NCBI GenBank assembly: GCA_965113315.1
Contig: OZ220364.1
Origin: Podarcis vaucheri
Taxonomy: Eukaryota
Reading direction: 5' to 3' (one strand)
Length of the DNA stretch: 64,000 nt
How positions within the stretch are numbered: the first letter of the stretch is position 1; every line of letters begins with the position of its first letter. Below are positions 12,801 through 61,748 of the stretch, piece by piece. The notes beneath the pieces were generated by a model. That model did not search any database, was not told where the DNA came from, and saw only the letters and a program-made list of their open reading frames with translations. Made by a program: the position numbers and the translations under genes.

Positions 12801-15800
12801 AAGACGAACTTAGTGAGTACTAGACTTAGGAGTTTATAGCGCTTGAATTTTGCAGTAGTAACTTAAACAAAAAGGTGACTGCGAATTGAGTATAACGAGG
12901 CTTTTCCCAACTGGGTGTGTGAGTCTTGTTGGGCTATATTGCAGAACTAAAGCTGCTTTTAAATCCTTCCAAATAGGAAAACTATTTAGACATAAGTCTA
13001 AATAAATCTAGCAGCGTTTTCTGCAAAACAAGCAGGACCTTGGTATAAAGATAAGGAGAATTCTGGCTGCAAATGTCAAGGGTGTATTATCAGGCATTTC
13101 GCAACTCATTTCCTGAGGCTGCAAACCTTGAGGTCCTCCTGCCCTTTGTTATGGATCATTATCGTACTCAATAGCTTATGGGTTCTTTTTGGAAAAGCTA
13201 AACTGGAAATTATTGACAAAACAATGTGTTCTTGAGGGGAGATGGTCTCCGTGTCCCATTTCCCAACACCCCAACTTGCCTTTATAGAATGTGCATTTCC
13301 TTGGCCCTCTTTCCACTGGTATGGCTACTGGCCAATATAAGAAACCGGGAGACTTCCCTAACTGTAGAAATAATTTTTGAGCTCCTATTTTGTATCTTGT
13401 AGGGGCTGGTGTTGGTGATATAGGTGTAGAAGTTGAAGATCCTCAAGGGAAGAACCCCGTGGAAGTTGCAATAGAAGACAAAGGGAATCAAGTCTATCGT
13501 TGCGTGTACAAACCTCTTCAAGCTGGTCCCCATACCATTAAAGTGGCGTTTGCTGGAGAGCAAATTCCCAAAAGCCCTTGGGGTATTCATGTTGGTGAAG
13601 GTATGTGTTTAGGGCAAACGTATAACTATTTAACCATATTACTGGATACATGTGCACATTAAGTGCAGTATCTATGAGACTCTCTAAATGTGGGAATTTA
13701 GTCTTTTGGCTTGGATAAAGCAGTTCAATTCTTGCATGAGTCATTTCCCCCCCCCCAAAAAAAAGGAATTTTAAATGTTAGTATCTTACCACGTTTAACT
13801 AACTGGGTTTTATCAGTCTTGTCATCCTAAATGACCGCATTGCTCTTTCTTACACTTTTAGAATTGAGCTTTCTTGCTGTGTCTCTTTAAAACCAACTAT
13901 ATTCACTTTATTTTGTATCACAACTCTCTTCCTTCTTGAACTGACACTTGGCTTTCTATTCCATCCTTGCCTGCTCCTGTGCTTTCAGACCTCTGCTCAC
14001 CTCTCCTGAGCTACTTTCAATTTGTGAGATGTTGGACTTCACTGCTATTGGCTTCATAGTTGGGCAAGCTCTGTCGGTAAGAGGGTGTGCAGGGTGCACT
14101 TGTGTTGCTGCGTTTTTTCTGAACACCTAGTCAGCAGGTTTGCAGCCCTAAGCAGAAGTGGCTGGGTTGTATGAAAATGTTGCAAGCAGCAGGTCAGGCT
14201 TCAAGCAGTCTCGCAAGAAGTCAAACGGCTTAACCACAAACTGCCAGACTTTGTTGCAAGGAGCTTGAAACTGAACTTCGGCTTGCTGCTACATCCCTGG
14301 TTTGTTGCATCTGCAGATGGATGTAGAACTAGTCAATGGAGATTGGCTGGGGATCAGAATTCCCTGCATGCTTGCAGCAGGACAGCTTTTTGTGGGATGA
14401 ATTGGTTTTCCCTCCAAGGAAATGGTTGCCAACTCCAGAAGGAAAGGCATGGAGTTGAGCTGTTGGGAGCCCAAGCCTGCATGCCTCGCGGTCCAATTTC
14501 ACGGCTAGGCCAAATACTGACAACTGTGAGCCTTCTTATCTCCCATAAATCATCATTCTGTATGTGGTCTTTTTCACACTGTGTATCCAGTGGTTTCTGC
14601 ATACAGACCTGCTTTCCCTAATGGTGACGGTGTTCAGCGAAGCATGTTTAAACTCTTGCGTGAGAATTATATTTCCCCACCTCCATGGTATTGTTCATTT
14701 CAGGCACATCTGCATGGGGCTTCCTCTGGCGATTAAATTTGCTAATTTAGGGGCAGTAGCAGGATCAGCATAGCAACACTGTCTCAACAATGCAAGGTGC
14801 AACATCTCTATGAGATGCTCCCTGTCTCATGCTATGTTTCACTTCTTGCCCTCTTCTTCACCCCCCACCCCTTGAAACCTGAGACTTCACTGGGGGAAAA
14901 AAAGTCTGGTTCAAACTGGAAGGTTTCATCTGCATGCATGCCCTAAGTAAGGCAATATGCCATCCTAAGTTTGAAACATTGAAAATGAGGATACTTTGCT
15001 CCTTTTACCTAAAACACTTTCCTTTTTAAAAAAACAACAACAAGTTTCTGCATTCCCCCCCCCCCCCGGTCTCTCACGCTGATGTAAGTTTGTTAGGAGT
15101 TTAGTTCATTTAAATGAGACTTGTGTTTGTACATAGTGAAGCACGTGAAGCAAAAAAACTGCAACCCCCAGTTTTATGTTAATATAATGTGCATTGACAG
15201 CCTCAGTCTTGCCTCCTTAAGACTGCAAAATGGTGTTCAGGTTTTACATTTCATAAACTTAAAATCTCATCCATCTTAAAGCAAGCTGAGAGAAACCGTT
15301 CCAGAGTAGCTTGGCTAAGTTAAATATCTCTAGGAATCAAAGGCTGTATTGATGTCTGTCTGCAATTCGCTTGCAGCGTGCAATCCAAATGCCTGCCGTG
15401 CCAGTGGTAGAGGCCTCCAACCTAAAGGAGTTCGGATCAGAGAAACCGCAGACTTCAAGGTTGATACTAAAGCCGCAGGGAGTGGAGATATCCATGTGGC
15501 AATAAAGGGACCAAGTAAGTGCTCGGCTTCTTAGCATTGCTGGGGCTTTGGGGTGGGGCCAGGGAAGTTTGCAAAGGGCTTAAAAGTGTAATCCATCGGC
15601 TTGTGATTCTGGTATCTGTATGTTGACTTTATCCCCTGGGGAAACTCCAGAAGTGAAATGGAGCCGTTCTTTTCTCTCTCTCATATCTAATTGCACAAGA
15701 CGAGACTAGGTAAACATGGCTGGAAATTTGAAATGACTGGTTCTTTGGGTGTGATAACCGCCTTGTTTACCTGTTTATACAGAAGTAATCTGAGCTGTGC

Positions 15801-18800: not shown

Positions 18801-21800
18801 TCAAGTTGGCACACATTAGTCTTCTTTGTCCCACTTTCACCCCACTCTAACTTCACAACAACCCTGTGAGGCTGAGAGACTGTGACTAGCCCCAAGGCCA
18901 CCCAGTCCAGCCCTCTAACCGCAACACTAAACTGGCTTCTGACATAAGTAATGAGAAATTCAGCACACGGCCCCTGAAGCGCAGTAACTGCAGTGAGTTT
19001 TCTGGTTTGCTTTGCAATAGATGGTTTCAGTTCACATAAGGGTTACCTCAAACAAAACCTGCTTAACAGGCTTTAATGCTGTGGATTTAAAAAATGGTTT
19101 TGAACAGGCAGCCCAAGGTCTTTGAGTCCTACTTGCTAAAGCATGGCACCTCTTAACAGCACTACTAACATGTTTGCTTCTTTTAGGTTTTGCCATTGAA
19201 GGCCCATCTCAAGCCAAAATTGAATGTGATGATCAGAACGATGGCTCGTGCGATGTGAAATACTGGCCCAAAGAGCCTGGCGAATATGCCGTTCACATCA
19301 TGTGCGATGACGAAGATATCAAAGACAGCCCCTACATGGCGTTCATCCAGCCTGCTTCTCCAGGCTTCAACTCTGACAAGGCAAGTATCTGAGGAGCTGC
19401 CTCTCTCTCTCAAAAAAGCTGTTAATCTGTCAGCCTTCTGTATAAACTGTGCTAGATGGTATTCAGGGTCAGGATTTAGCCCCAATTTAAAGGAAACTCA
19501 CGGCAACACCAGATATGAGTCTGTCCCAGGTTAGAAGTTCATTACAGGAGAAACTCCTTCCATTGAGGACTGTTGTAAATTTAGGCACTAGTGCATGTAT
19601 GCTTTGCATTGTGAGATGTTCCCAAGAACATCAAGTGGAAAACTATTTATTTTAGCAGTGACATGCAAGGTATATCCAGGTATCTCACTCAAACAAACTT
19701 CGGGCATTGTAGTCTGAGCTATTAACAACCTGTAAAGGTATGTTGACATATTCTCTTATGTTTCTGCTGATCTTTCTTAGGTAAAAGCTTATGGTCCAGG
19801 GCTGGAGCGGACTGGCTGCATTGTGAACAACCCTGCAGAGTTTACAGTTGACACAAAGGAAGCTGGGAGTGCCCCTCTGAGGATCTATGCACAGGTAAGG
19901 TCCAGAGTTCCAGGCTGGAAATACTTAAGATGCCATATGGCCACAGGCATCACAGGATGCTGGACTTGATGGGCAATTAGCCTAGTCCTGGCACTTGCCA
20001 TATTGGCGAGTGTGAGTATGCCCTGAGCCCAAGTCCTTATAAGATACAGGGTCAAGTTTATTCCTTGATAGGAAAGAATTGCACTATTGGTCATGTCAGC
20101 TTGTCCATGTTACCCAGGTGGTTGCTGGTACGTGGTTCTAGCAACACTTGTTAGTGTGAATTTGGTCCTAAGTGGGAGTGGCTGATATTACAATCTGCCC
20201 TGCTCTGTGAAATCTAGCTATAGCCTATAGGATTAAAGTGGAGCAAGTTTTATGGCTCTTTACATGGCGGCAGTGAAGAGAAAGCAGGAAGGGCTTCCAA
20301 TACTGTAGATAAGAAGGTAAACAAAACACTTCTTCGTCCTCTATACCTCTGTTGTGTTCTTGCCTACAAAAGGTTTATACATTCTATGTACCGTTAGAAC
20401 ATACGGTGCCACAAGGTATTGAAAGATGTTCTGCATGGAAGTCTTAAATGCTGACCAGTAAGTTCACACTAAAGACTCTTGACTCGTCATCATTTGTGGT
20501 AAACCAGCAGTGATAGGATTCCAAAACCATGTCGGTCTGTATGTCGCCCCTCTTAAGAGGATCTCTAATCTTCCTTTTTTTTTTTTTTTAACAGGATGCA
20601 GAAGGGAATCCCATTGACATCCAAATGAAAAGCAAGCCGGATGGTATCTATGCCTGCTCTTACAATCCAACAAAACCAATCAAGCACACACTTGCTCTTA
20701 CTTGGGGAGGAGCTAATGTGCCCAATAGTCCTTACAGGGTAAGTTTTAAAAGCGGCTAAATAGCTGCAGCTCTTTATCCTCCAGTTGTAGCATGTCTTAC
20801 CATGTATTATGCACAAACCCTTGCTTATGTTAATTGGCGTTTAGATGGTAGTATTACACTAAGCCCAGAGGTGAAAAACTGTATCCATCTGGCAGGCTGG
20901 ATCTTTATCTCCCTCACCTGCTTGCAGGCCAAGTTTGACAAGTGGGTGGTGCCACCCGCCCGTCAGTCAACTGATACCAGGTGACCAGTTTCTTTAAAAG
21001 AAAAACATGCTTGCAAGACCCAACAGAGTTTTGCTGCTGCTGCTGAGCAGTGCCTGAAAATTCTGTTTCAGCCCTATACCCCGAGCACCCTTGACATCAT
21101 ACGAGGCTGTAGGGCAGGTCTGTGTGGTTTAGGCCAAAATGGTCTTGTAGGACAAATGGAGAAGCCTGGTGGGTCTGATTTGGGTGTTCTCCACTGCTGC
21201 TGTAACCAAAAGTTCAGTCGCTTTGTGCCATTGTTGCACATCTTTATGTGCCACGCAAAAATATTCCCCTTTACTGAGGCCTTTGGCCATTAAACAATCT
21301 ATGGCCTGTTAAAGCTTGGGTGGGGAAAACTGTTCTGACTATTTTATTATTATGCTGTTTGTCATTACGCTTTTTATTAAGTTTTTATAATTATGCTCTG
21401 TAAAATGTGTTGTTAATGTTGTGCACCCTCCTAGGATCTTTTGATAAAGGGTGGTATATAAATAGAAATAATAATAATTAATAATGCACCATTAAAGATG
21501 TAAATGAGATTAGGAAAAGTTATGACCATAAAATAAAGCAGATTCAAAAATACTCATGTTTTCTGGTCCTCTCAGTTCTTAAATCCATTTTTAACTTTGC
21601 CTCAGGTTTTGTTATTTTGTATTTAGTTCCCTGTTCATGATTTTATTTTGTCTCCACATTGTCGAATACTTACTGTAAGCCTTCCCTTTTATGGAGTGGC
21701 ATACAAATGTTGTAATCAAAGTGGCTCCTCCTTTAATTTGATGAAATGTTCCCCCCTAGGTCCAGATTGGGCAAGGCAGTCATCCCCAGAAGGTGAAAGT

Positions 21801-36800: not shown

Positions 36801-39800
36801 AGAGCATGTAGAAAGACTGAGGGAGGAAAGGGGACAGAGGTGAAGGCTTGAGGAAAGCGCTGTGACAGGGTGGCTAGGAAACAAGGGTTGGAAGAAGGAA
36901 CAGCCTGGTGGGATGAGGGCTAGTGGAAGAAGCCCAAAGCAATTCTGATGTTACTAGATGCTAAGCACTCTTGCGTGTCAACTATCTAATATTGCCAGAT
37001 ATAGAATGCGAATTCATTGAACGTCAGATGAATGAAGCCCCTGCCCCCAAATTGTAGTTGGGTCCCCTCTCTTACCTCATTCTTCCAGTTACTGAAGACC
37101 TAACAGGCTTTTATTTAATGTGTTCTGAGTACTGCAGACTTATGCAAGAATACTTGAGTATGTAAAATACTTCTTGGAGCAAGTACATTTCAGCTGTTGG
37201 CAGATCTAATTCAGCTTCATCTTAAGAAGTCTTTCTTCGCTGAAGTTGTGAAACTCAGCCCAAGGGCCAGGGGAGGCAATGGCATTTGGAATTGAATTGC
37301 ATGTGCACTGCACACCGTGAACCTATGCTGAACGGGATGCACTTGGTCTAACGTAGCCGATGCATGAATAACCACCTTTTGTGTAATTGGTTTTAAGGCA
37401 AACATGTCTCAAGGGACAACTGACAGAGCTCTGATTTTGTATTACTAAGTTAATAGCTTTTTAATTCTAGCTGATGAGCCGGATACCCAGTCATGGCGCA
37501 GTCCGCTGAAAGCAATTTCAGAGTTCTTTAAAGGTGACCCACAGGGTGAATCTAATGAGACAGGTTTGAACTTTTACTAACTAATTACCTGTGCCTCCAG
37601 CAAATCCTCTAAACTGTATAAAGTGCTGCTGTGAATGAGCTTAATTGAACTTCTGTGCTTAACTGCTGCTGTACTATTAATTCTCCACTGAGTTATCCTT
37701 TTTACTAAACAATTCCTTGTTTGATTTATATGCACACTTACTTTGGTCCTTGATCTAAATTGTAACTGCAGGCAGTTCTAATCACGTTTGCAACTAATCT
37801 TGTGAAATAGCTGCATGTGCCAATCCACATATCTTGATTTTCTGGGAATAGGTCCTTGGAGCTCTTCTTACCTTGAACTAGCCGATCATAACACTTGTTT
37901 GACAGCACCAAATTTTGTTGACTGCGCTCAACTTGTCAATGTCATACTGAGGCGTAGAGCCTAAAGAAGGCAGGGTATTTTTTCCCCATTCTGTGCCAGT
38001 TTTCATATGTTTATTCATATGTCAGTTTGATCCCATTTCTACATTAATCTGCATTTTTTATATAAAAAGCATGAGCATTGTATTCAAATACATATTGTCA
38101 TAATAAATACTTTAAAATGCATATCTTATCAGTTTCTCAACCTTTTAAATGCTAAAATATGCAGTTTAATTTTTTACACATTTTGCTGTTTTTGAGAAGT
38201 GTTTTGCTGCAAAATTTGGAGAGCTGTTCTGATCTTTGTATTAATCTGGGAGGTGCAAATTGATTTGGTTTGCTCATTGATGCAGACCAAATAAATCTCT
38301 CCTCCATCCCTGGGTTATAACGAAAGTTACTAACTATTCCAGACTAACACGCAGTACTGAATTGGATGTTGAGCCTAATCAGTAGTAGTGTTTAAATAAA
38401 AAAAGTCTTCCTTTTTCTGGAAGCTTATATTTAAATGTGCCCGATAACTGACCTAACCAGCTGTATAATTTTGGAACAATAAATCACTCCAACCCCTATT
38501 TGATGGGGGTTTCTTAGCTTACAGCCATTGGAGTTGAGCCAGCCAAGGAACTGCTAGTGATTTCACCTCTCTCTAATTGATGAGGTCACAGACTGGGAAT
38601 GATAGGAATAAATTGCCTTATCTGAACAGACCACAAAGCAGATGTCTCTGCAGATTTCTTGCAAAGCTTTAAATCAGCATTGTGTGCGTGTGTCGGTGCT
38701 CAAAGCGGCAAAAATTGCTTGTGTGTCATTGAGGCCTTTGATGAGAAGGTGGCCAAAGGAATTGAAATGTGGTCTTTTTACTATTTAGGCTTGGCAGAAC
38801 CCGTAAATATAGTTGACAATGGTGATGGCACCCATACAGTAGCCTACACACCTACGAAAGAAGGTCCCTACACAGTTGCAGTAAAATATGCAGATGAAGA
38901 GATTCCTCGCAGGTAAGAGTGGGGTGCAGGAAACAAAGCTTATTGTGCAAACTGCAGTGCTGTTGGCTGGCCTCCAAATTTGAGGTGGGTTGCATTGTTG
39001 TTCATGAGCTTAGTCTTTGCACTTAGTTTTGGCAAAGAGGCTTCAAAGAAATGCTTCTACAGCAAGGACTTGGTTCCTCCTGGTGGTTGTCAGAGAGGGG
39101 GAAGAGGCTACAAAGTGCTGTGCATTTCCTTGAACTGTAGAATCTAGCAAACATTCTGTAACTAGCCCAGTGTTTGCTTCTGCCAAGGACCAGCTTGTTT
39201 ATTTATGTGCTGCTATTATTGCTTGAATGCCAAAATAGGCTTCCGAGAAGATTTACAAACCACCAAAACGAGTTACACAAGCATTAAAATGCAAGTGCCC
39301 ATCGCTGAAAGGCACAACGAAACAACACAGCAATTAAAAACAGGGGTCAAAAAATCTCTAGGGAATGCCTGCGTAAACAGGTATGTCTGTCCCACTCTCT
39401 TCCCCAAATGTCTAGTAGGTTTGTACGTATAGTAATGAGTGGTTCCCTAACTCCTACATCAAAAAGGTTCAGTGACTAATCCAGTGTCTGGCCTTCGACA
39501 GTAATCTCGTACCTTTGTTTAACCTTCAGAAATACTTTCTTCATGCCGGTGAGGCATCTGCTTACATGATCTTCATTGCTGAAATATGTCGCTCTGTTCT
39601 TTCAACAGCCCATTCAAAGTTAAGGTGCTTCCAACATACGATGCCAGTAAAGTGACGGCGAGTGGGCCAGGGCTAAGCTCCCATGGGGTTCCTGCCAGCA
39701 TGCCCACCGAGTTTGCTGTTGATGCTAGAGATGCAGGCCAAGGACTTCTCTCAGTGCATGTGACTGTAAGATACAATTTCTTCCTACTGTTGACCATTTA

Positions 39801-42800: not shown

Positions 42801-45800
42801 TTGACACACAGTTGTTTGCAGCCTGTTAGTCCAAACCTTATCAAGAGTAATGAGAAGAAAGTTCTGTTGAGTTCAGTAGGACAAACTCACAGGTAAGTGG
42901 CGCTAGGATTGCAGCCTAAATTAGCATTTGGCGTGAGCTGAGTGTTTTGCCTATGTGGTTCTTGTGGACAAAGCAGTGTTTTTTCCGGCTATGAGAAATA
43001 CTACCTCACAAAACCCTAGTGTCGGATGCCATTCTTCTGTTCAGATGTTCTGTTGTACCACTTTCCCCCTTGTTCAGGGCTCTTCGCCGTTGTGGTCCCA
43101 GCTAGTTGGGAACTGTGAGCAAGAAGTCAGCCCAACACAGAGTGCTTGCGCAAGAATGGAGTTCCGTCCCAAAGGGCTTTGGGGCACATTCTCGTTTCAT
43201 GTGGAAGAGAGGGAAGGTGGCTAGCTTGGAAGTGCCATGGAACCCTTGCATTCTGCTTCTGGTGTAGCTGCTTTCATATGTACCTCTTAAGTTGTGATGT
43301 TTTTTATAAGCTCTATGAATGAAGAGGGTTTTTAAAACTATACCTTGCCTTTTGCCACTAACTAGGCTACAGATGCAGATGAAGTTGCAGTGTTGTCTCA
43401 GGAGCCACTAAATGCAGCATGTCCCCCTGGATTCCATCCCTGGGTACCTAGTTTTGTTTTTTTACACTGTCTTCCGTGTTCCATGCAAGAGTTGACATCC
43501 TGCCTCTTGGGTCTGTTTAAGCTTGCTTTCTTGTCATATCTTACTGGTGATCAAAAAGCTACTTTGGGGCAACTTGGGTTTGATTCAGAACCTTCCTTCA
43601 AATATATATATATATTTAACAACTCTTAACATCATAATCATTTTAAACGCTGCATCTGTGGTACTTTGTCCTTAGGGAGCTATTTTCTTCTTGACTTCAG
43701 ATGGTGAACGGCTTCTTCCTAGAGTATTGTCACTGACCATGTTGCTCTGGCTTTATGTTTTGGTTTCTCTTCTGCTCTAAAAAAACCACAACTTTCTTCC
43801 AGACCATAGCCAGCTTCAGTGTTCCTTTGGACGGAGCTATCCTTGCATCTTTTACTCTTCCATTTTGTATGTTTTTAAAACTCTCTTCTGAATGTTTTTC
43901 GCATTAAACAATGAATGGGAGCAAAGCTTTGTGTGGTGGTCAACAGTCGGCAGTTGAGTGGTGTCTTCATTCTGGATGCAACTGTCTGGACTGACCAAAA
44001 ATAGCTAAGCAAACTGTTTTGTGCTAGAACTCCTAAAATGACAATAACTTTTTCTCCACAATAGGTCACAGAAGAAGCTTATGTTCCTGATGGTGACATG
44101 AATGGTCTTGGGTTTAAGCCCTTTGATATGGTCATTCCTTTCGCAGTAAGAAAAGGAGAAATAACTGGTAAACAAGCTTTCAGCACACAGTTGATGACTC
44201 TCTTTAAAGCAGTGATGCGGACCCTGTGGCCCGCCAGATGTTGGGCTCTTAACTCCCACAGTCCCTGACTGCTGGTTGGGGCTGATGTGGGTTAGAGGCA
44301 ACATCTGGAGAGCTACAGAGTCTCCATCCCTTAGTTAATGTCAAGGAAAATGCCTTGCCCCCACCTGTCTTTTGGGTGCCCCTTGCATGGCTCAGTAGTT
44401 TAGCTTTGTAATACATTGTAATAGAAGCATAGATTTCACCCTGCAATATAATCCTTCAAAAAGATTGCGCTATTGTTTGGCCTTAGCAGAGCTGGGAGGA
44501 GATAAAAATGAAGCTCTCCTAGAGTAGCCGTGATTGTCCTGTCCTTGTTCCCCGCTGCGCAAGTCTATTTAATCTGCTCTTAAGCATCATCCAGCTCTTC
44601 ATTGGGGCCTTCGATTATTATTTCTTATTATTATTTATTGAATTTCTATATTGCCCTTCATCTGAGGATCATGGAGCGCTTCACAATATAAAAACCCAAA
44701 AATACATAACATAACAATTATCATTATTGTTATTTATTGAATCTGTATACCACCCTTCATCCATAGATCTCAGGGCTGTTCACAACAAAAACAAGAAAAA
44801 GCCTTGCACAAAATGCTAAAACCAAAGCGCCTGAAAATAATATCCCACCCCTGCACTGTTAAAAAGGCCATAGATTGTTTAATTTGCCAAAGGTCTGGTT
44901 GAAGAGGAACATTTTTGCCTGGTGCCTAAAGGTGTTACAATGAAGGTACCAGGCGAACCTCCCTGGGGAGAGCATTCCACCAAGTGGGAAGCCACTGCAG
45001 AAAAGACCTTTCTCATGTTCTCCAGATCTCTTATGGAGGAGACACACAGAGGAGGGCCTTTGATCATGATTGCAAGGTCCGGGTAGGTTCATATGGGGAA
45101 AGGCTGTCCTTGAGGTATTGCGGTTCTGAGCTTGAAAACAGTCAGCTTTGGCAGGCCATGGCAAACTCTATAGAGAGTTGTAGATGCCACCATGGCAAAC
45201 TCTATAGAGAGTTGTAGATGCCACCTGATGGCTTTATGGATTTTGTCTGTCTAAGCCAACCTTCAAGGACACGACTTGGGTTAAAGAATATTAGTGTGTT
45301 ATACTCTGGTCATTATAAGAAGAATAAATGGATCTCCAAACCTTAATGCAGGAGAATTTTTGGAATGCTTTCAAAGAAATGCAGGGAAACCTTTGCACCT
45401 TTGTATAAACGCCCCCCCCCCCCCCGTTTATATGAGTGAAAGGGGGGGGCAATACCGTGTGGATTTGAGTTTGAAAACATCAAAACACATGGCTTTGCTT
45501 TTTGAAGTATTTTGCAGTTTGAATTCAGTTTGAGCCTTGTGTTTTCAGGGGAAGTTCACATGCCCTCGGGGAAGACTGCACCAGCAGATATTGTTGATAA
45601 CAAGGATGGCACTGTAACCGTCAGCTATGCCCCTGTTGAGGTTGGATTGCATGAAATGCATATCAAATACATGGGCAGTCATATTCCAGGTGAGTGCCAG
45701 CTGATCTCAAATCAGCGCTACGTTATAAGAACTCAGCTGTTGTTGATTTGCTGCATTTGCCGTTGTTGAGGGCTTCATTTATTCACACTTTTTCTTCAAT

Positions 45801-48800: not shown

Positions 48801-51800
48801 GTGTTTGCAGTCCATTGCATTTAGTATAAATGTACATAAAGAAAAGACTTGCCTTTAACACTCATACTCTACACAGACTGCAAACGGAGAACTGACAACT
48901 TGTTTTTAACCATGTGATGAAGTCATGTTGTGTTTAGCTGGCTTTTGCCCAGTAATTTAGTATGAACTGCAGAAACAAAAGGTTCCCTGCAATAACTTCT
49001 GAGCTGTCAAGTGTTGTCCAGTTACTGTCCACTAGAGTCCTGGTTTCGTGGAGCATAAATTTGCATTTGTAAGCAGCATGCATGTCTTCTGATTCTCATC
49101 GATGTTTTCTCTGTAAATTTAAGTGGAAAGGCATTTGGATGGTTTGCCCAGAATGTTAAGATCCAGTAATGTTAATATCTAGTGGTGTTTTAATCCAAAG
49201 TCCTAATGGGGAATTTTCCTTCTTAAAGATGACAATAGGAAGCAATCTCAAGTTAAACTGGGCTCTGCTGCTGACTTCCTGTTAGACATTAATGAGACTG
49301 ATCTTAGCCTCTTGACAGCCAGTATTAAAGCCCCATCTGGCCGAGATGAACCTTGTCTTCTGAAAAGGCTACCCAATAACCACATTGGTAAGTCTTAATC
49401 ACCTTCTAGGGAGGCTGGTGTATTGGTTGTGTGGTGCTGGCAGGGTGGTCTTGGGGAAGCTTGTGAGCCTGCGCCACAATTGGAAACGAATAATACTTTT
49501 AATTTGTGGGTAGAGTGGGATTTTGATGCCACAAATAATATTTAATGCCAGCTATCTTCCAGGGACGCGGGTGGCACTGTGGGTTAAACCACAGAGCCTA
49601 GGACTTGCCGATCAGAAGGTCGGTGGTTCGAATCCCCGTGATGGGGTGAGCTCCCGCTGCTCGGTTCCTTCTCCTGCCAACCTAGCAGTTCGAAAGCACG
49701 TCAAAGTGCAAGTAGATAAATAGGTACCGCTCCGGCGGGAAGGTAAACGGTGTTTCCATGCTCTGCTCTGGTTCGCCAGAAGCAGCTTAGTCATGCTGGC
49801 CACATGACCCGGAAGCTGTACGCCGGCTCCCTCGGCCAATAAAGCGAGATGAGCACCGCAACCCCAGAGTCGGCCACGACTGGACCTAATGGTCAGGGGT
49901 CCCTTTACCTTTACCTGTCTTCCAGTTCTGTATTGTGATTTGACAGTGTGTGTGGAGGGAGGGGGGCAAAAAGATAAAGTGGGAAGTTACAAATTTGTCT
50001 CGCTGCTAACCTCTGTCTGGCAGGTATCTCATTCATTCCACGGGAGGTGGGAGAGCACCTGGTCAGTATTATGAAGAATGGGAGCCATGTCCCCAACAGT
50101 CCGGTGTCCATTATGGTGGTCCAGTCTGAGATTGGTGATGCGAGCAGAGCAAGGGTTTCTGGACGTGGCTTAGTCGAAGGACGCACGTTTGAAATGTGTG
50201 ACTTCATTGTAGATACAAGAGATGCAGGTCAGTACTGGGATTCCTGGGCTGCCAGAGGGTATTGAAGGGATGCCTGTGGGCCGCGGGTTGCCCACCTGTG
50301 ATGTGGTTGATCTGTTGTTGTTCTGAGTCTCAGTTGTCCGACCATCACAGCAACTGAGCAGAGCAAAATTGTAAATTGTGGTTGCCATGATGTAGAACAG
50401 GTTTGTATGCTCTGTCAATTTGCTAATTTATATAGGTTAAAACTCACAGCTCTATACCACAAGCAGCATATCAAGCAAAATCCCATATGTGACCATGAGT
50501 TGAAACAGCTGGCTCACTTGTAATGGTTAATATACAATTGATATACTGCAAAAGACTGCAATCCATAAAGCCGTCCATCAAGATTTAGGCAGTGCTCATT
50601 GGAGCTCTTTACAACCGCTTGCACTCATCCCAGCTGCTTTCTTTTCTAGGTTATGGTGGGATATCGTTGGCAGTTGAAGGACCTAGCAAAGTAGATATCC
50701 AGACAGAAGATCTAGAGGATGGAACTTGCAGAGTTTCATACTTTCCAACTGTACCTGGTGTCTACATAGTATCTACTAAGTTTGCTGATGAGCACATCCC
50801 AGGTAAGAGAAAAGGAGCCTACGTAAGCGAGCCATTGCTGGTCCACTTCCCCATCAGCGCTGACCTCTTGTAATAAGTGCAGAGTCTATAGGACACTATC
50901 TAGGCTTCCCACCAGGGCTTTCATGTTCTGAAAATGCCTGAAGAAGCTTGACTGCTAAATTTTGGAAGGCAGGATAATAAACCTCTTGCGCACCTTGAAG
51001 GTGTTTTTGTTTGAGGGGTTGTCTCCTGCTGCAGTGTAACACTTATCTCTTCGTTACTCAAACTAGAATATTGGTTTGGTACAGGTGACTGTCAGCGTAC
51101 ATGGGGGTTGCATTCTAGGGTGTAGCTTGCAAAGCCAAAATCACATATAGTCAAAATACATTGGGGTCATAGGTGGGTGGGATTGCCAAAGCCTTTTTCT
51201 CCCTGGACACCTGCCCCGCCTTTAATTTGTTTAAAATTCGCAAAGCATGTAAAGCTGAATGTGTGTAAATAGCAAGTTAATCTGTGTAGGAAGATGGGGC
51301 TTCCTTGATGGTCATCACTGATAAGTCTCATGCTTAATGTGCTTAGTTAACAATGCAGTGGTCCAGCCTTCCTCCTGGGAAAGAATTCTAAGTGGAAATA
51401 ACTATTAGTAGATGATATGTTACTTTATTGCCTGTGAAAGTCTTTATGCTTCCTGTACTGATAGATGGAACTCAATGTTGTTTGTCTCTACTAACTACAG
51501 GGAGCCCATTTACTGTGAAAATCAGTGGTGAAGGAAGGGTGAAGGAAAGCATTACACGTACTCGGCGGGCTCCTTCTGTGGCCACGGTTGGAAGCTTGTG
51601 TGATCTTAACTTAAAAATTCCAGGTAAGTTAGTTCTACTAATACATTTACTGTTTTGGAAACCATAAACCAATAAGTCATTGAATCTTCTGGGCATTCTT
51701 TGCAATCAGATTTAAAAATGGAATGTTATCCAACTAATCTGTTTCTTCTGTTATCCTGATCTTCTAGAGATCAGGGAAGCATTCTTATTTAGATTGGGGC

Positions 51801-54800
51801 TTTGCATGGTAGGACTCACACCCATTTCTTCCTAGGCCCCATGAAGCGGCAGTGGCATTTAAATTTTGCTTTCCAGCACATCACCCACTGACTCAGTTCT
51901 CATAACAAGTGACCTGGTTCACATGTAATGCTAAGCCAAACCTGGACTTAAGGTGAATGCACAGGCTATTCAAAATGATATCATTATTTTTGCCTCTTAG
52001 ACCTTCTTCCTGCTGCTATTCTACCCGAGTCTAAGCCACAATTTGACTTAGCACATGGCTGAACCCAGATTTGTTTTATTAACCAAGGTTTTTTCCTGGT
52101 TTCACAGCTTATGGTTTGTCTAGAGGAAACAAACCATGAGCTTGAGTTTAGGCTACATGTTAAGCCAAACCATGGCTTAACTTACTGTAGCACAGCAGTA
52201 CTCGATGAAGAACAATACGCCCAAAATTTCTGTTCTGGGAATTCATGCTATGTGTGAAGTACGGGTGTTAGGATGATCTCAGAAGGTTGTACTTGAGTCA
52301 CTGTAATGCTTGAGTTACCTTCAGCCGTGTTTTTGGAAGGGTAGGAGCGCAGTTGCTGCTATAGAGATCTGTATCATGTGGATCTAACTGGGGGAGACAC
52401 ATAAAATAATTGGCTGGTTAAAGAATAACTGCTATCCTGCTCATAGAATGCACTAATATACAGAATATATTCAGCATGCCGCTTCAGTTTAATATGTATT
52501 CTGACGTCTGTTTCTGTCTCTTTCTCTGCTGCTCTAATCAATCTTGGTCTTCCTGTCTTCTGTTCCTTTCTTTCCCCCTATTGCCTTCTCATAGTTACAT
52601 GGTTCCAAATGGCTATATGTCTGGAGAGATTGTCCCGTGTTTCACACCAGTTCATTCCCACTTTCCTGTGTGTTGAGCAGAAGGAAAACTGCCAGACTCA
52701 ATTGAGGGAATCTTGGTGTCCTAGTTTCACAAAAAAATCAGCCAACATCAGACAACAATGTTTCCAATCAGTCCTTCTATGGGATCTACAGATGTATTAC
52801 ATACCTGGCTCCTTAGGGGTAGTGGGTACGTTGTAGTACTGAGGTTGTTCTATAACTGTATTACATACTTCAATAAAATTTGCTTTAAGGCGCAATGCAT
52901 GGCAAGTAAGCAGCAAAAGTATTTGTTACGAAGACCTGTAACAAACCCTCAGTCAGTAATGGAGTTTGTGCCCCTCCAGATATTGTTGAATTCCAATTCC
53001 TACCAGTTCTCAGAATGGGTGATGTTCACTGCACTAAACCCAACTCTGTTCCCAAATAAAATTAGTTTCTTTCTTGCTTCCTTTCTCCTTTCCTTTCCTT
53101 TCCTTTCCTTTCTGAGAACTTCAAAGAACTTCAAAGCACAACCCCTCCTGGACATATTTGTCTGTAACTTGGTAGATTTGATCTGCTCTGTTGTGGGGGG
53201 AGTCTATTATGCCTGCAAATTCTGTCCTCTTCTGTCAACAGGAAAAGGTCGGGGTTTTTTTTACTTCCCAGTAGTTATTGGCATGGGGGATGAAGTGGAC
53301 TTAAGTTGGGTGATTCAATTCTTGATTCATTTGTCAAGTGCTTCAGAAAGCGGCAGACTGCTTTCTGAATTGAGAGATTCTCTTGTTTGAGAGATTCTAT
53401 AGCTTCAAAAATGGATGGTGGGGACTCAAAGAGCAATGTATTGATTTCTCATTACCAGCTGCAAGCTCTCTTAACTCTGCTTTCTGCAGTCTGGAGACAC
53501 CATGACTTGCTTGTCAAGGGTGGTGGGTGACAAAATAATTGGATTTGTGAAGATTCTTGGTTTTTGAGCTGAACTGATAAGTATGTGCTCGTCCCTTATA
53601 TATATCTGACACTCTGCATGCACAGGTGAATGCTTGGTATGCACTCACTTAATTGTCAGTTATGATTTGCTGGTTGCAGTTCTGGGAAGTTGAGTTCCAT
53701 CAGGTTCCCAGCAAATGTCTGCAGGTAAAAATGTTTTGGTGTATGATCTGTAGATGAATGTGCACTCAAGGGCCACTTTGCATGTAATGTTTGAGGGCAT
53801 TTCAAACATCTGAAAGCAGCTGCCTTTGGAACTTCCAATAGACCCCAAGAACCTCAGTTGTATAGTCAACTAAACTTGGTGACTGGGTTTCCTATGGGGA
53901 AGGTTTCAAAACAACTGAAATACTGGGGAGCTCTGCCCTCGTACACTGGGCATTGTGTGACAGAGTAAGATGTTTAGAAACCGGATCTACCTGCTCCCCA
54001 TTAATGGTCAGCTCCTTTCCCTTTTTTTTAGAAATCGACATTGGTGACATGTCAGCTCGGGTTACTAGTCCATCTGGGAGAATGACAGATGCAGAAATAG
54101 TAGAGCATGATAAAAACACATACTGTGTCCGCTTTGTACCACAAGAAATGGGGGTCCATAATGTTGATGTGAAATACAGAGGACAGCATGTGCCAGGCAG
54201 TCCATTCCAGTTTACCGTTGGGCCGCTTGGTGAAGGAGGGGCCAATAAGGTTAGAGCTGGCGGTCCAGGACTTGAAAGAGCAGAGGCAGGCATCCCAGGT
54301 AAGACCTTCACTAAATTTCATCTGAATACATGGGCATGGGTCTAAGGGCCTTGCAGTGAGAGGGGACTATAGCTGTAATCTTGGAACAGGGTGCTTACAC
54401 CTTGTAACACTAGAGCACATTTCTGGAAGCCTAGTGACCCTGCCTTGTGTTGCAGAGCCCCATATCACAAAGGGATTGGAGGGTCACTTGCCTGCTTCTA
54501 ATTCCTGCATGGTTGTTGTTGTTAACAGCTGAGTTCAGCATCTGGACAAGGGAAGCTGGAGCTGGAGGTCTTTCCATTGCAGTAGAAGGACCAAGTAAGG
54601 CAGAAATTGCTTTTGAAGACCATAAAGATGGATCGTGTGGTGTATTATACACTGCTCAAGAGCCTGGTATGGATATCTTAAGCATTAGCAAGTTGAAATG
54701 AAGCAAAACACCACAAAAACAATTCCTCCTTGCTTAGCAAAGTTCTTATTTCTTCCAGGTAACTACGAGGTGTCCATCAAATTCAACGATGAGCATATTC

Positions 54801-60800: not shown

Positions 60801-61748
60801 CTGGTAACTTCCTTTTTAAAATAAATAAATAAATGTGGGTTTCTATTACTGGTCCAGTGACCAAAGACCTGAGCTTCTCCACCTTCTAAGTGTCCACTAA
60901 ATCTTTAGTGCTGCTTTCACCCCAGAGAAAAGTATTCAGTTGCCATTGGCAGTGGAATGTTGGATCTCCCGCCGCTTTACAAAGCATTTAAGAGCATCTA
61001 AAGCAGGCTTTCCCAAACTTGAGTCTCCCGTCTGTTTTTGGACTACAACTCCCATCTTCCCTAGCTAGCAGGTCAGGGACGGTGGGATTTGTAGTCCAAA
61101 AACAGCTGGAGAGGCAAGTTTGGGAAAGCCTGATCTAAAGATGAACTGCTAAGAAAAGAACTAGAATTCTTTGTCTTGCACAGGAGTCAGCAAGGTTTAC
61201 TTGATAATTTTTGCCCAGTGCTTTTTCTCTGCAGAAATACCTTGCCCTGCAAATAGCATTATCCTCCATGAGCAGCATGCTGTTAAAGACTACTGACCGT
61301 AATGGCTGTGTTCCACTGTGGGAGGCAGTATGTCTCTGGACCCAAGTATGGGACTCTCAAATGGGGACAGTGCTGTGAATTCAGATTCTGCATCCCAACT
61401 TCCCATAGGCACCTGTTTGGCAAAAACAGGGCGCTGGATTAAGTGAGCCTTTGGACTGATCTAGCAAGGCTCTTAACTTTGCGTCTGATTGGTAAAGTAA
61501 AGCTTGATTGGAGCTGTTTGAATTTGGGGTGTGGTAGTAATGCTCTTCATTCTGCCTTAGGTTCAAATATGTTGTTAGTTGGTGTCCATGGACCTACAAC
61601 TCCTTGTGAAGAAGTATCTGTGAAACACCTTGGGAACCAACAGTACGGTGTAAAGTACGTCGTCAAGGAGAAGGGTGACTATATTCTAGCTGTGAAGTGG
61701 GGTGAAGAACACATTCCTGGAAGCCCCTTCCACGTTACAGTTCCCTAA
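6601..61748 (+). CDS. FLNB: Filamin-B, spliced CDS, exons 2-46 (5' partial, exon 1 outside window)
   Basis: 45 exons with AG/GT ends (one GC donor) whose phases chain into one ORF: CH domains, Ig-like repeats, two hinges, and C-terminus [19 protein letters not shown]-diagnostic peptides include [40 protein letters not shown] and VESVTRS. Confidence 0.97.
7995..8092 (+). CDS. FLNB: FLNB exon 3 (98 nt)
   Basis: ctag|GTCTC...TCAG|gtatg; [33 protein letters not shown]. Confidence 0.97.
8325..8530. mobile_element. Old mariner/Tigger-like MITE remnant
   Basis: TA-CAG start; internal similarity to the copy at about 51083-51290. Confidence 0.5.
9204..9351 (+). CDS. FLNB: FLNB exon 4 (148 nt)
   Basis: ccag|GTCAT...AGAG|gtgag; [49 protein letters not shown]. 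Confidence 0.97.
10864..10982 (+). CDS. FLNB: FLNB exon 5 (119 nt)
   Basis: gcag|GAATT...AGAG|gtatg; [40 protein letters not shown]. Confidence 0.96.
11373..11450 (+). CDS. FLNB: FLNB exon 6 (78 nt)
   Basis: ttag|GCCCT...CAAG|gtaag; [26 protein letters not shown]. Confidence 0.96.
12002..12164 (+). CDS. FLNB: FLNB exon 7 (163 nt)
   Basis: ccag|GTTAC...GCAG|gtaag; [37 protein letters not shown]. Confidence 0.96.
13403..13600 (+). CDS. FLNB: FLNB exon 8 (198 nt)
   Basis: gtag|GGGCT...GAAG|gtatg; [18 protein letters not shown]...HVGE. Confidence 0.96.
13989..14076 (+). other. Candidate poison (NMD) cassette exon in FLNB intron 8 (88 nt)
   Basis: Long CU-rich tract (about 13921-13988) with CTGAC branch-like motif, tttcag acceptor, TCG|gtaaga donor, and in-frame TAG at 14057-14059 when joined to exon 8. 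Confidence 0.6.
15377..15514 (+). CDS. FLNB: FLNB exon 9 (138 nt)
   Basis: gcag|CGTGC...CCAA|gtaag; [38 protein letters not shown]. Confidence 0.96.
17091..17217 (+). CDS. FLNB: FLNB exon 10 (127 nt)
   Basis: gcag|AAGGT...AAAG|gtgag; [42 protein letters not shown]. Confidence 0.95.
17355..17585 (+). mobile_element. Sauria SINE, truncated copy
   Basis: gtcaagtgcaagtaaataaataggtaccgct...tttaccttt tail, similar to the 34480 and 49562 copies. Confidence 0.8.
18283..18419 (+). CDS. FLNB: FLNB exon 11 (137 nt)
   Basis: atag|CCCAT...TTAG|gtaag; [40 protein letters not shown]. Confidence 0.96.
19187..19380 (+). CDS. FLNB: FLNB exon 12 (194 nt, GC donor)
   Basis: ttag|GTTTT...CAAG|gcaagt; [52 protein letters not shown]. 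Confidence 0.94.
19781..19894 (+). CDS. FLNB: FLNB exon 13 (114 nt)
   Basis: ttag|GTAAA...ACAG|gtaag; [38 protein letters not shown]. Confidence 0.96.
20595..20738 (+). CDS. FLNB: FLNB exon 14 (144 nt)
   Basis: acag|GATGC...CAGG|gtaag; [32 protein letters not shown]...NSPYR. Confidence 0.96.
21265..21480 (+). mobile_element. L2-like LINE 3' remnant
   Basis: Degenerate 3' end (aggcctttggcc...gggtggtatataaat) similar to 26370-26658 and 44630-45130. Confidence 0.5.
21760..21883 (+). CDS. FLNB: FLNB exon 15 (124 nt)
   Basis: ctag|GTCCA...GAAG|gtaac; [41 protein letters not shown]. Confidence 0.96.
22228..22388 (+). CDS. FLNB: FLNB exon 16 (161 nt)
   Basis: ctag|GTGAT...AGAG|gtatg; [45 protein letters not shown]. 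Confidence 0.96.
23289..23379 (+). CDS. FLNB: FLNB exon 17 (91 nt)
   Basis: tgaag|GAAAT...ACAG|gtgag; [30 protein letters not shown]. Confidence 0.95.
23850..24019 (+). CDS. FLNB: FLNB exon 18 (170 nt)
   Basis: ttag|GTGTG...GCAG|gtagg; [26 protein letters not shown]...YTPVQQ. Confidence 0.96.
26370..26658 (+). mobile_element. L2-like LINE 3' fragment
   Basis: Encodes degenerate RT tail [40 protein letters not shown]. Confidence 0.75.
26659..27022 (-). mobile_element. Sauria SINE nested in L2 tail
   Basis: Reverse complement of the 49562 copy; 14-bp TSD TATAGGGCAGTATA / TATAGGGTGGTATA. Confidence 0.9.
27685..27802 (+). CDS. FLNB: FLNB exon 19 (118 nt)
   Basis: ctag|GGTAG...AACA|gtaag; [39 protein letters not shown]. 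Confidence 0.96.
28619..28752. mobile_element. Palindromic hAT MITE
   Basis: Fold-back element, 8-bp TSD CTCTACTA / CTCTACCA. Confidence 0.88.
29372..29634 (+). CDS. FLNB: FLNB exon 20 (263 nt)
   Basis: tgaag|GAGTC...CAAG|gtaag; [25 protein letters not shown]...LPPDPSK. Confidence 0.95.
30731..31328 (+). CDS. FLNB: FLNB exon 21 (598 nt)
   Basis: ccag|GTGAG...AAAG|gtatg; [51 protein letters not shown]...GPGIEGK. Confidence 0.97.
31368..31885 (-). mobile_element. CR1 LINE 3' fragment
   Basis: Minus-strand ORF 31430-31840 [30 protein letters not shown]...RLDGHL is the CR1 ORF2 C-terminus. Confidence 0.92.
31976..32132. mobile_element. Tc1/mariner-type MITE (internally deleted)
   Basis: TA|CAGTGGTACCTC...GAGGTACCACTG|TA. 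Confidence 0.88.
32501..32674 (+). CDS. FLNB: FLNB exon 22 (174 nt)
   Basis: atag|ATGTT...AGAG|gtaaa; [27 protein letters not shown]. Confidence 0.96.
33197..33330. mobile_element. Palindromic hAT MITE
   Basis: Fold-back element, TSD TTCTAGAG / ATCTAGAG. Confidence 0.85.
33465..33627 (+). CDS. FLNB: FLNB exon 23 (163 nt)
   Basis: gcag|GTCCT...CTCG|gtaag; [32 protein letters not shown]. Confidence 0.96.
34213..34373 (+). CDS. FLNB: FLNB exon 24 (161 nt)
   Basis: gcag|AGGGG...CCTG|gtaag; [35 protein letters not shown]. Confidence 0.96.
34480..34831 (+). mobile_element. Sauria SINE
   Basis: tRNA-like head, ACCTTT tail, 11-bp TSD TAATGTATAAT (34466-34476 / 34832-34842). Confidence 0.92.
35030..35185 (-). 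mobile_element. Old tRNA-derived SINE
   Basis: Minus-strand head agtggctcagtggcagagcatcagct; similar heads at about 41480-41560 (-) and 63690-63830 (+). Confidence 0.6.
35498..35665 (+). CDS. FLNB: FLNB exon 25 (168 nt)
   Basis: gcag|GCAGT...AGAG|gtaac; [25 protein letters not shown]...TAPR. Confidence 0.96.
35969..36219. mobile_element. Mariner/Tigger-type MITE (second family)
   Basis: TA|CAGTTGTACCTTGG...CCAAGGTACGACTG|TA. Confidence 0.85.
37471..37563 (+). CDS. FLNB: FLNB alternative cassette exon (93 nt, 31 aa) between exons 25 and 26
   Basis: ttctag|CTGAT...ACAG|gtttga, phase 1/1; [31 protein letters not shown], resembling the recalled 31-aa insertion of the long human FLNB isoform. 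Confidence 0.9.
38789..38912 (+). CDS. FLNB: FLNB exon 26 (124 nt)
   Basis: ttag|GCTTG...GCAG|gtaag; [41 protein letters not shown]. Confidence 0.96.
39609..39765 (+). CDS. FLNB: FLNB exon 27 (157 nt)
   Basis: acag|CCCAT...GACT|gtaag; [25 protein letters not shown]. Confidence 0.96.
40991..41180 (+). CDS. FLNB: FLNB exon 28 (190 nt)
   Basis: tcag|GACCA...ACAG|gtaaa; [31 protein letters not shown]. Confidence 0.96.
42456..42703 (+). CDS. FLNB: FLNB exon 29 (248 nt)
   Basis: gtag|GTCCT...CATG|gtaag; [30 protein letters not shown]...NSPFTVM. Confidence 0.96.
43366..43443 (+). CDS. FLNB: FLNB exon 30, hinge-1 (H1) cassette exon (78 nt, 26 aa)
   Basis: ctag|GCTAC...CTGG|gtacc, phase 0/0; [26 protein letters not shown]. 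Confidence 0.92.
44065..44167 (+). CDS. FLNB: FLNB exon 31 (103 nt)
   Basis: atag|GTCAC...ACTG|gtaaa; [34 protein letters not shown]. Confidence 0.96.
44630..45130 (-). mobile_element. L2-like LINE 3' fragment
   Basis: Minus-strand [15 protein letters not shown], homologous to 26370-26658; duplicated AT-rich tail. Confidence 0.72.
45157..45224. repeat. Perfect 34-bp tandem duplication
   Basis: CATGGCAAACTCTATAGAGAGTTGTAGATGCCAC x2. Confidence 0.95.
45549..45689 (+). CDS. FLNB: FLNB exon 32 (141 nt)
   Basis: tcag|GGGAA...CCAG|gtgag; [25 protein letters not shown]...YMGSHIP. Confidence 0.96.
47672..47800 (+). CDS. FLNB: FLNB exon 33 (129 nt)
   Basis: gcag|AGAGC...GAGG|gtaag; [43 protein letters not shown]. 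Confidence 0.96.
48583..48756 (+). CDS. FLNB: FLNB exon 34 (174 nt)
   Basis: acag|GTGGC...ACAG|gtacg; [35 protein letters not shown]. Confidence 0.96.
49229..49387 (+). CDS. FLNB: FLNB exon 35 (159 nt)
   Basis: taaag|ATGAC...ATTG|gtaag; [53 protein letters not shown]. Confidence 0.95.
49562..49915 (+). mobile_element. Sauria SINE, full length
   Basis: gggacgcgggtggcactgtggg head with B-box ggttcgaatcc, ACCTTT tail, flanking tcttcca repeat. Confidence 0.93.
50024..50227 (+). CDS. FLNB: FLNB exon 36 (204 nt)
   Basis: gcag|GTATC...GCAG|gtcag; [20 protein letters not shown]...FIVDTRDA. Confidence 0.96.
50650..50802 (+). CDS. FLNB: FLNB exon 37 (153 nt)
   Basis: ctag|GTTAT...CCAG|gtaag; [51 protein letters not shown]. 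Confidence 0.96.
51501..51623 (+). CDS. FLNB: FLNB exon 38 (123 nt, 41 aa; segment skipped in filamin var-1; carries RRAPS phospho-motif)
   Basis: acag|GGAGC...CCAG|gtaag; [41 protein letters not shown]. Confidence 0.96.
52595..52825 (+). other. Candidate FLNC-like Ig20 insertion exon in FLNB intron 38 (231 nt, 77 aa, in frame)
   Basis: About 90-nt pyrimidine tract, catag acceptor, TGG|gtacgt donor, phase 1/1, no internal stop; [15 protein letters not shown]... resembles recalled FLNC [15 protein letters not shown]... Confidence 0.7.
54032..54298 (+). CDS. FLNB: FLNB exon 39 (267 nt)
   Basis: ttag|AAATC...CCAG|gtaag; [24 protein letters not shown]...[12 protein letters not shown]. Confidence 0.96.
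54529..54666 (+). CDS. FLNB: FLNB exon 40 (138 nt)
   Basis: acag|CTGAG...CCTG|gtatg; [39 protein letters not shown]. Confidence 0.96.
54759..54874 (+). CDS. FLNB: FLNB exon 41 (116 nt, ends in the ADAR recoding region)
   Basis: ccag|GTAAC...TCAG|gtgag; [39 protein letters not shown]. Confidence 0.96.
55291..55316 (+). promoter_or_regulatory. Candidate editing-complementary sequence (ECS) for FLNB exon 41
   Basis: TGAGGCTCTGGGGTGAGCACAGAGCA can pair with exon 54844-54873 TGCTCGTAGGCTCACTGTTATGAGCCTTCA in three ordered helices. Confidence 0.65.
56545..56980 (-). mobile_element. L2-like LINE 3' fragment
   Basis: AT-rich tail followed by degenerate L2 RT 3' sequence on the minus strand. Confidence 0.65.
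57362..57494 (+). CDS. FLNB: FLNB exon 42 (133 nt)
   Basis: ttag|GAGTC...CAAG|gtaag; [44 protein letters not shown]. Confidence 0.96.
57965..58101. mobile_element. Palindromic hAT MITE
   Basis: TSD ATGTAGAT / CTGTAGAT, CAGG...CCTG ends. Confidence 0.88.
58720..58896 (+). CDS. FLNB: FLNB exon 43 (177 nt)
   Basis: gcag|ATAAA...ACAG|gtgag; [41 protein letters not shown]. Confidence 0.96.
59703..59838. mobile_element. Palindromic hAT MITE
   Basis: Perfect 8-bp TSD CACTTGCC. Confidence 0.9.
60181..60399 (+). CDS. FLNB: FLNB exon 44 (219 nt)
   Basis: ccag|GGTTA...ACAG|gtaag; [34 protein letters not shown]...SPFKAKVT. Confidence 0.96.
60600..60803 (+). CDS. FLNB: FLNB exon 45 (204 nt, hinge 2)
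   Basis: gtag|GCCAG...GCTG|gtaac; [24 protein letters not shown]...VDCSKA. Confidence 0.96.
61004..61132. mobile_element. Palindromic hAT MITE
   Basis: Perfect 8-bp TSD ATCTAAAG. Confidence 0.9.
61561..61748 (+). CDS. FLNB: FLNB exon 46 coding part (dimerisation repeat 24, TAA stop)
   Basis: ttag|GTTCA...CCC TAA; [23 protein letters not shown]...[12 protein letters not shown]. Confidence 0.97.

Follow-up and report, generated by a model that had tools for sequence, protein, structure and literature searches.

A probable reptile counterpart of the mammalian filamin B poison exon in Podarcis vaucheri

Poison exon N of filamin A (FLNA), presumably the exon also labelled 9N, is said to have been reported by Zhang et al. 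2016. The available parts of several reviews describe the FLNA exon as PTBP1-repressed, included in neurons and a trigger of nonsense-mediated decay (NMD) (PMC13542418, PMC5816070, PMC8652244, PMC13751310), and the available tables of PMC13078869 give it a length of 57 nt and flanking exons of 201 and 138 nt. Filamin B (FLNB) has an NMD exon of its own. In the same tables the human exon (chr3:58099637-58099735) is 98 nt long with flanks of 198 and 138 nt, is dynamic in brain development, is flagged as conserved in mouse, and has a dPSI of +0.137 with cycloheximide (PMC13078869). The mouse Flnb exon (mm10 chr14:7886025-7886123, also 98 nt) has a dPSI of +0.158 upon Ptbp1/2 knockdown and +0.81 with siPtbp1; CTCTCC is listed within its upstream 100 nt, and the available tables list no PTBP CLIP peak in the exon or in the upstream 100 nt, and one in the upstream intron (PMC13078869). 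Its PSI is 0.84 with cycloheximide versus 0.16, its flank has a PhastCons value of 0.42, and the portion of the source available predicts inhibition by PTBP1, with no PubMed record of that regulation (PMC11188260). One review, in its available text, states that PTBP1 represses the Flna and Flnb poison exons in neural progenitors (PMC12652946). For human FLNC the available table holds one event, and it is not an NMD one (PMC13078869).

The window analyzed here is a 64,000-nt stretch of the Podarcis vaucheri contig OZ220364.1. Its + strand carries a filamin gene, covered from exon 2 (6601) through to the stop codon at 61748, and 44 joined filamin exons make a single open frame 2480 codons long. 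The peptide of exon 2 matches human filamin-B chains at 81 of 81 residues and scores 180 bits against filamin-B versus 151 bits against filamin-A, which identifies the host gene, on peptide likeness, as FLNB. Exon numbering follows what we take to be the human scheme, and the numbers 8 and 9 presuppose that a single coding exon precedes the window; the part of the window ahead of 6600 shows no exon-1 motif. Exon 8 is the only 198-nt exon in the window and is followed directly by a GT at 13601. Intron 8 makes up 1776 of the 47,703 intronic nt in the window (3.7%). Elsewhere in the gene, the intron after exon 12 is of the GC-AG type, starting with GC at 19381, and is required for the open frame. 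An interspersed repeat at 49562-49915 is presumably Sauria-SINE-like.

The original prediction had proposed a poison exon of 88 nt in intron 8, and the CU-rich tract, the CTGAC, the acceptor, the exon and the donor TCG/GTAAGA are all present where it placed them (Table 1). Read from exon 8 in phase 1, the exon encodes the 23 residues predicted, followed by the TAG. The tract was described as long and CU-rich; it is so, and at 118 nt without an AG it is longer than described. It includes TCTCTT (13925-13930) and CTTCTT (13932-13937). As judged from the DNA, the proposed anatomy of a PTB-repressed poison exon, with a CU-rich tract at the 3' splice site and a premature stop, is present. The prediction that this intron of FLNB is paralogous to the one that houses the FLNA poison exon also agrees with the flanks, which are 198 and 138 nt for the lizard and mammalian FLNB exons and 201 and 138 nt for the FLNA exon, so that all three exons share an intron position, the match between FLNA and FLNB being judged by flanking exon lengths.

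Table 1. Features of the candidate poison exon and its neighboring exons in the window.
Feature	Position	Strand	Basis and remarks
FLNB exon 8, 198 nt, ends in phase 1	13403..13600	+	Open frame; length equals human upstream exon; ends agree with RNA contig X1
AG-free pyrimidine-rich tract, clustered TCTT/CTCT, predicted PTBP1 silencer	13869..13986	+	Motif content; putative binding
Predicted branch point CTGAC (A at -45)	13941..13945	+	Sole YTRAY match in 13801-14120
Acceptor AG	13987..13988	+	7.5 bits; 15/44 real acceptors lower; 53/2967 intronic AGs as high
Candidate poison exon, 88 nt (3n+1)	13989..14076	+	Sequence; position matches mammalian 98-nt NMD exon
Stretch most like mammalian exon, frame other than exon-8 frame	14032..14061	+	6/10 residues equal to dolphin insert
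Premature TAG, exon-8 frame	14057..14059	+	17 nt ahead of the 88-nt exon's own 3' junction
Donor GTAAGA (TCG/GTAAGA)	14077..14082	+	7.9 bits; 12/43 real donors lower
Four TGCATG motifs, possible RBFOX enhancers	14365, 14478, 14711, 14931 (14365..14936)	+	Putative role
FLNB exon 9, 138 nt	15377..15514	+	13600-15377 joint in X1 and X23; length equals human downstream exon

Upon inclusion, the TAG would lie 155 nt before the exon 9/10 junction and 6221 nt before the last junction, with 37 exon junctions downstream of it. NMD is usually elicited when more than 50-55 nt separate a premature stop from a junction further downstream, and decay is therefore predicted. Any donor 3' of 14059 retains the stop. 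Splicing at the GT after 14086 would give a lizard exon of 98 nt, a candidate rejected for its donor score of -7.7 bits. Downstream of the 88-nt exon TGCATG, which we take to be the RBFOX motif, occurs four times versus 1.0 expected (Poisson p about 0.02). Over the introns at 6850-60803 the motif is found 41 times on the sense strand and 19 times on the antisense strand. RNA folding of 13860-14110 gave nothing unusual (z +1.14).

The 88-nt stretch might also be a pseudo-exon, that is, chance splice sites behind a pyrimidine-rich patch without meaningful splicing, or the decayed relic of an ancestral exon, and the strength of the sites is compatible with this. They sum to 15.4 bits on a matrix trained on the same gene's own sites, with 12 of the 43 real exons scoring lower, and the same sum is reached by 24 of the 2280 pseudo-exons on the antisense strand of 47.7 kb; the two splice sites by themselves are within chance. 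The tract upstream of them is beyond chance. The 148 nt upstream of the acceptor are 70.9% pyrimidine and hold 16 overlapping CU 4-mers, and the acceptor ranks first among 1354 intronic YAG sites both for AG-free length and for pyrimidine content. Among the 44 real acceptors these two measures go no higher than 72 nt and 62.8%, and none of 1436 antisense sites reaches both values of the candidate (AG-free length alone, 1; pyrimidine content alone, 4). This ranking is partly post hoc, because the site was first picked for its tract. Independent of that choice is the place of the top-ranked tract, which falls in the very intron (3.7% of the intronic sequence) that houses the mammalian poison exon, and this speaks against a pseudo-exon, a reading that we consider unlikely. 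According to the available text of PMC1431707, AG-free zones of at least 100 nt occur in 838 of 67,334 human exons and such exons are enriched for cassette exons; the small number of distant-branch-point exons assayed proved to be PTB-regulated. The predicted branch point of the 88-nt exon is not very distant.

A second long AG-free acceptor without a known exon, at 52595, is a further point for the pseudo-exon explanation. This runner-up (region 52490-52825) has an AG-free length of 105 nt, 68.9% pyrimidine and 17 CU motifs. A stop-free phase-1 frame of 231 nt follows it as far as a weak donor, the GT at 52826; spliced there, it would be an in-frame cassette. The frame starts with W-F-Q-M, then E-R-L, a start that in our assumption resembles the muscle-specific insert in filamin C repeat 20, at what looks like the same position; a PDB search with the frame gave 0 matches. 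It is possibly a relic or a live paralogue, in FLNB, of the filamin C repeat 20 insert.

Mammalian FLNB proteins include copies with the exon in translated form. A protein search with exon 8 returned 44 relatives. One of these, P0028, has an insert of 33 codons (1+98 nt) after the exon 8 peptide, followed by exon 9 out of frame, as does P0049; the cluster of P0028 includes a longer member with an identical tail as well as the dolphin model P0046. P0028 has no stop in the mammalian exon itself and terminates 42 codons into the frameshifted exon 9. In P0046 the same insert, identical at 28 of 33 residues, continues into intron sequence. The tail of the lizard-type exon is in none of the 44 exon-8 relatives, reptile proteins included, and the intron read-through tails among these relatives stop short of the 88-nt exon.

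Translated mammalian copies were the only reference for comparing the lizard exon with mammals, so the homology tests have low power. A tblastn search with the mammalian insert leaves the 88-nt exon outside the top 8 matches, and in a column-wise scan 322-469 of 1144 blocks score as high as the exon. A codon-aware scan places the best ungapped intron-8 match inside the 88-nt exon, by a margin of 0.1-0.7 bits, and that score is equalled in 45-53 of 72 intron-sized chunks. In a splice-anchored alignment the exon stands about 2.7 SD above length-matched pseudo-exons, with its score reached by 1-2 of 788 antisense and 9 of 831 sense pseudo-exons (itself included) and by 0-1 of 500 base shuffles; four of the top five among 205 candidates in intron 8 begin at 13989. 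Stricter nulls make the anchored score less exceptional, with 31-59 of 1000 dinucleotide shuffles attaining it, and 15-36 of 1000 profile shuffles. Overall, against these translated copies, p is about 0.002-0.06 in the anchored tests, and the unanchored tests are not significant. The score of the 10-residue stretch of Table 1 against the dolphin insert, with its six identities, is reached in 18 of 2000 shuffles, with three frames tried, and its score against the P0028 insert in 75 of 2000. The anchored likeness appears to add weak support to that from position and architecture. It is borderline, as a pseudo-exon would allow, but it also ranks in about the top 1% of pseudo-exons.

A region search with the mammalian insert returned P0028 only (1 of 12 candidates). 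Among 1.84 billion representatives, the 39-residue frame over the 88-nt exon matches two, which are repetitive and were taken to be unrelated. The 70-residue insert of the opossum model P0025 has no significant likeness to the mammalian or the lizard exon: 210-262 of 2000 shuffles score as high against mammals and 478-1258 of 2000 against the lizard frames. A metagenome scan with 136 pattern matches came down to one locus, a filamin at 40% identity, which is uninformative.

A weak likeness, together with a length, frame class and stop place that all differ from those of the mammalian exon, may also be read as convergence, with a real reptile poison exon of separate origin in the same intron. 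The dolphin and lizard exons have in common a D-L start and the central stretch, along with a compatible donor (V-R on read-through in both), and a second birth in the same one of 43 window introns seems improbable, which makes convergence a very unlikely account.

RNA reads were examined for 4 of 24 listed runs, from one close relative and of unspecified tissue; in introns, the contigs of X1 diverge from the window by about 3%. The joint between exons 8 and 9 (13600-15377) is the only one listed, with a contig depth of 161.5 in X1 and 3 reads in X23. Inclusion joints of the 88-nt exon are found in none of the four runs, and no raw read falls on the exon, at 7-9 raw reads per raw run; joints are listed only from 3 reads up, and contigs drop rare forms. 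In X1 the exon is present just on an unspliced contig that crosses both splice sites, at a depth of 2.6, and thus skipping is the main form in X1. Skipping is as expected for a repressed, degraded exon, and the lack of inclusion at this low raw depth would also suit a pseudo-exon. Against a pseudo-exon, the relative's contig over 13807-14083 has 3 differences in 278 positions versus 34 in 1084 across four further pieces of intron (Fisher p 0.038), a count that leaves out a 19-nt repeat match and coding pieces and in which one intron piece is not displayed; one of the two substitutions of the exon-spanning contig has no listed place. The relative's contigs in coding exons have 2 differences in 338.

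We favor the reading, at a probability of about 0.8, that the 88-nt stretch is orthologous, in a reptile, to the poison exon already known from intron 8 of mammalian FLNB. Its flanks place it in the intron that holds the 98-nt NMD exon in human, P0028, P0049 and the dolphin model P0046 carry their insert directly after the exon 8 peptide, and the most extreme AG-free, pyrimidine-rich acceptor of the gene sits in this intron. The anchored alignment is rare among pseudo-exons, divergence is lower in the relative's contig, and the stop is kept with every downstream donor. Pointing the other way are the lack of an inclusion joint, the weak likeness to mammals, the length of 88 rather than 98 nt, the lack of a reptile protein with the tail, and the mouse PTBP CLIP peak, which is just in the upstream intron.

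The exon would presumably act in the same manner as its mammalian counterpart. PTBP1 would bind the CU-rich tract around the branch point and block the acceptor, so that the exon is skipped in progenitors and non-neural cells. Where PTBP1 falls, probably in neurons, the 88-nt exon would be included, perhaps with the help of RBFOX downstream, and the premature TAG would send the mRNA to NMD. Any protein that escapes would stop at about 470 residues if exon 1 is of human size, and would lack the C-terminal repeats. The direct basis for the exon is its anatomy, stop and position, and the exon 8-9 skipping in the close relative. A response to cycloheximide and to PTBP1 loss would be carried over by analogy from the mouse and human tables.

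The exon had been put forward as looking unannotated. The idea is not new for FLNB, since an NMD exon of 98 nt is catalogued in the same intron of the human and mouse genes. For that reason the closest counterpart is FLNB's own exon and not the FLNA exon named originally, for which the paralogous intron position holds. The literature search found no paper on a reptile copy of the FLNB poison exon among the matches listed. In their available parts, PMC3176834, PMC5062968 and PMC8187152 make no mention of filamin, and that of PMC9978375 treats filamins for RNA editing only. This is probably an extension of a known mechanism to reptiles rather than a new mechanism, and since mammals have already yielded a description of the mechanism, what is gained is modest and concerns evolution. 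If the exon is real, the shut-off of filamin B through PTBP1 and NMD dates at least to the common ancestor of reptiles and mammals, and a poison exon has been preserved by its architecture while its sequence drifted near the detection limit; alignment-based scans would miss exons kept in this way. The off-switch may be older still and predate the FLNA/FLNB duplications. In that case a single PTB-repressed poison exon, present in this intron of the ancestral gene, would have come down to both paralogues and, for FLNB, to reptiles and mammals alike; length, sequence and place of the stop would have changed along the way, with only position, pyrimidine tract and the disruption of the frame retained. 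We give this even odds; common descent of the FLNA and FLNB exons is favored because, by the mammalian coordinates, they occupy the same one of about 45 introns.

Compared with the mammalian FLNB exon, the lizard exon shares the gene, the intron, the phase-1 entry, a frame-breaking length and an upstream CU motif. It differs in length, 88 versus 98 nt, and in its distance from exon 8, which is 388 nt versus 729 in human and 1278 in mouse. The 98-nt length is a trait of the mammalian copies that we do not treat as defining, and an indel would explain the 88 nt. The lizard exon (3n+1) has its stop inside the exon, whereas that of the mammalian exon (3n+2) lies in the frameshifted exon 9, as in P0028, so it seems to be frame disruption that is kept, not the peptide. 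Regulation has been measured in mouse and human FLNB, and the lizard exon is known here from its sequence.

Other exons of the gene have counterparts among human FLNB cassettes as well. An in-frame 93-nt cassette (37471-37563), between exons of 168 and 124 nt, matches a human FLNB alternative exon in position and, unlike the 88- and 98-nt pair, also in length. An in-frame 78-nt exon (43366-43443), between exons of 248 and 103 nt, is the counterpart of the human 72-nt cassette, which we take to be hinge 1; an internal AG at 43402 would shorten it to 42 nt.

The FLNA poison exon N belongs to another gene, its 57 nt are a multiple of three, and the lizard FLNB exon, in the paralogous intron, is likened to it by position only. 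The PTBP1-repressed NMD cassettes of the non-neuronal genes Fmnl3, Iqgap1, Ripk1 and Bak1, as given in the available part of PMC11188260, share with the lizard exon pyrimidine motifs at the exon, a stop on inclusion and an actin-cytoskeleton gene. Those exons are backed by RT-PCR or minigene assays and the lizard exon by the DNA, and Flnb is also in that list (PMC11188260).
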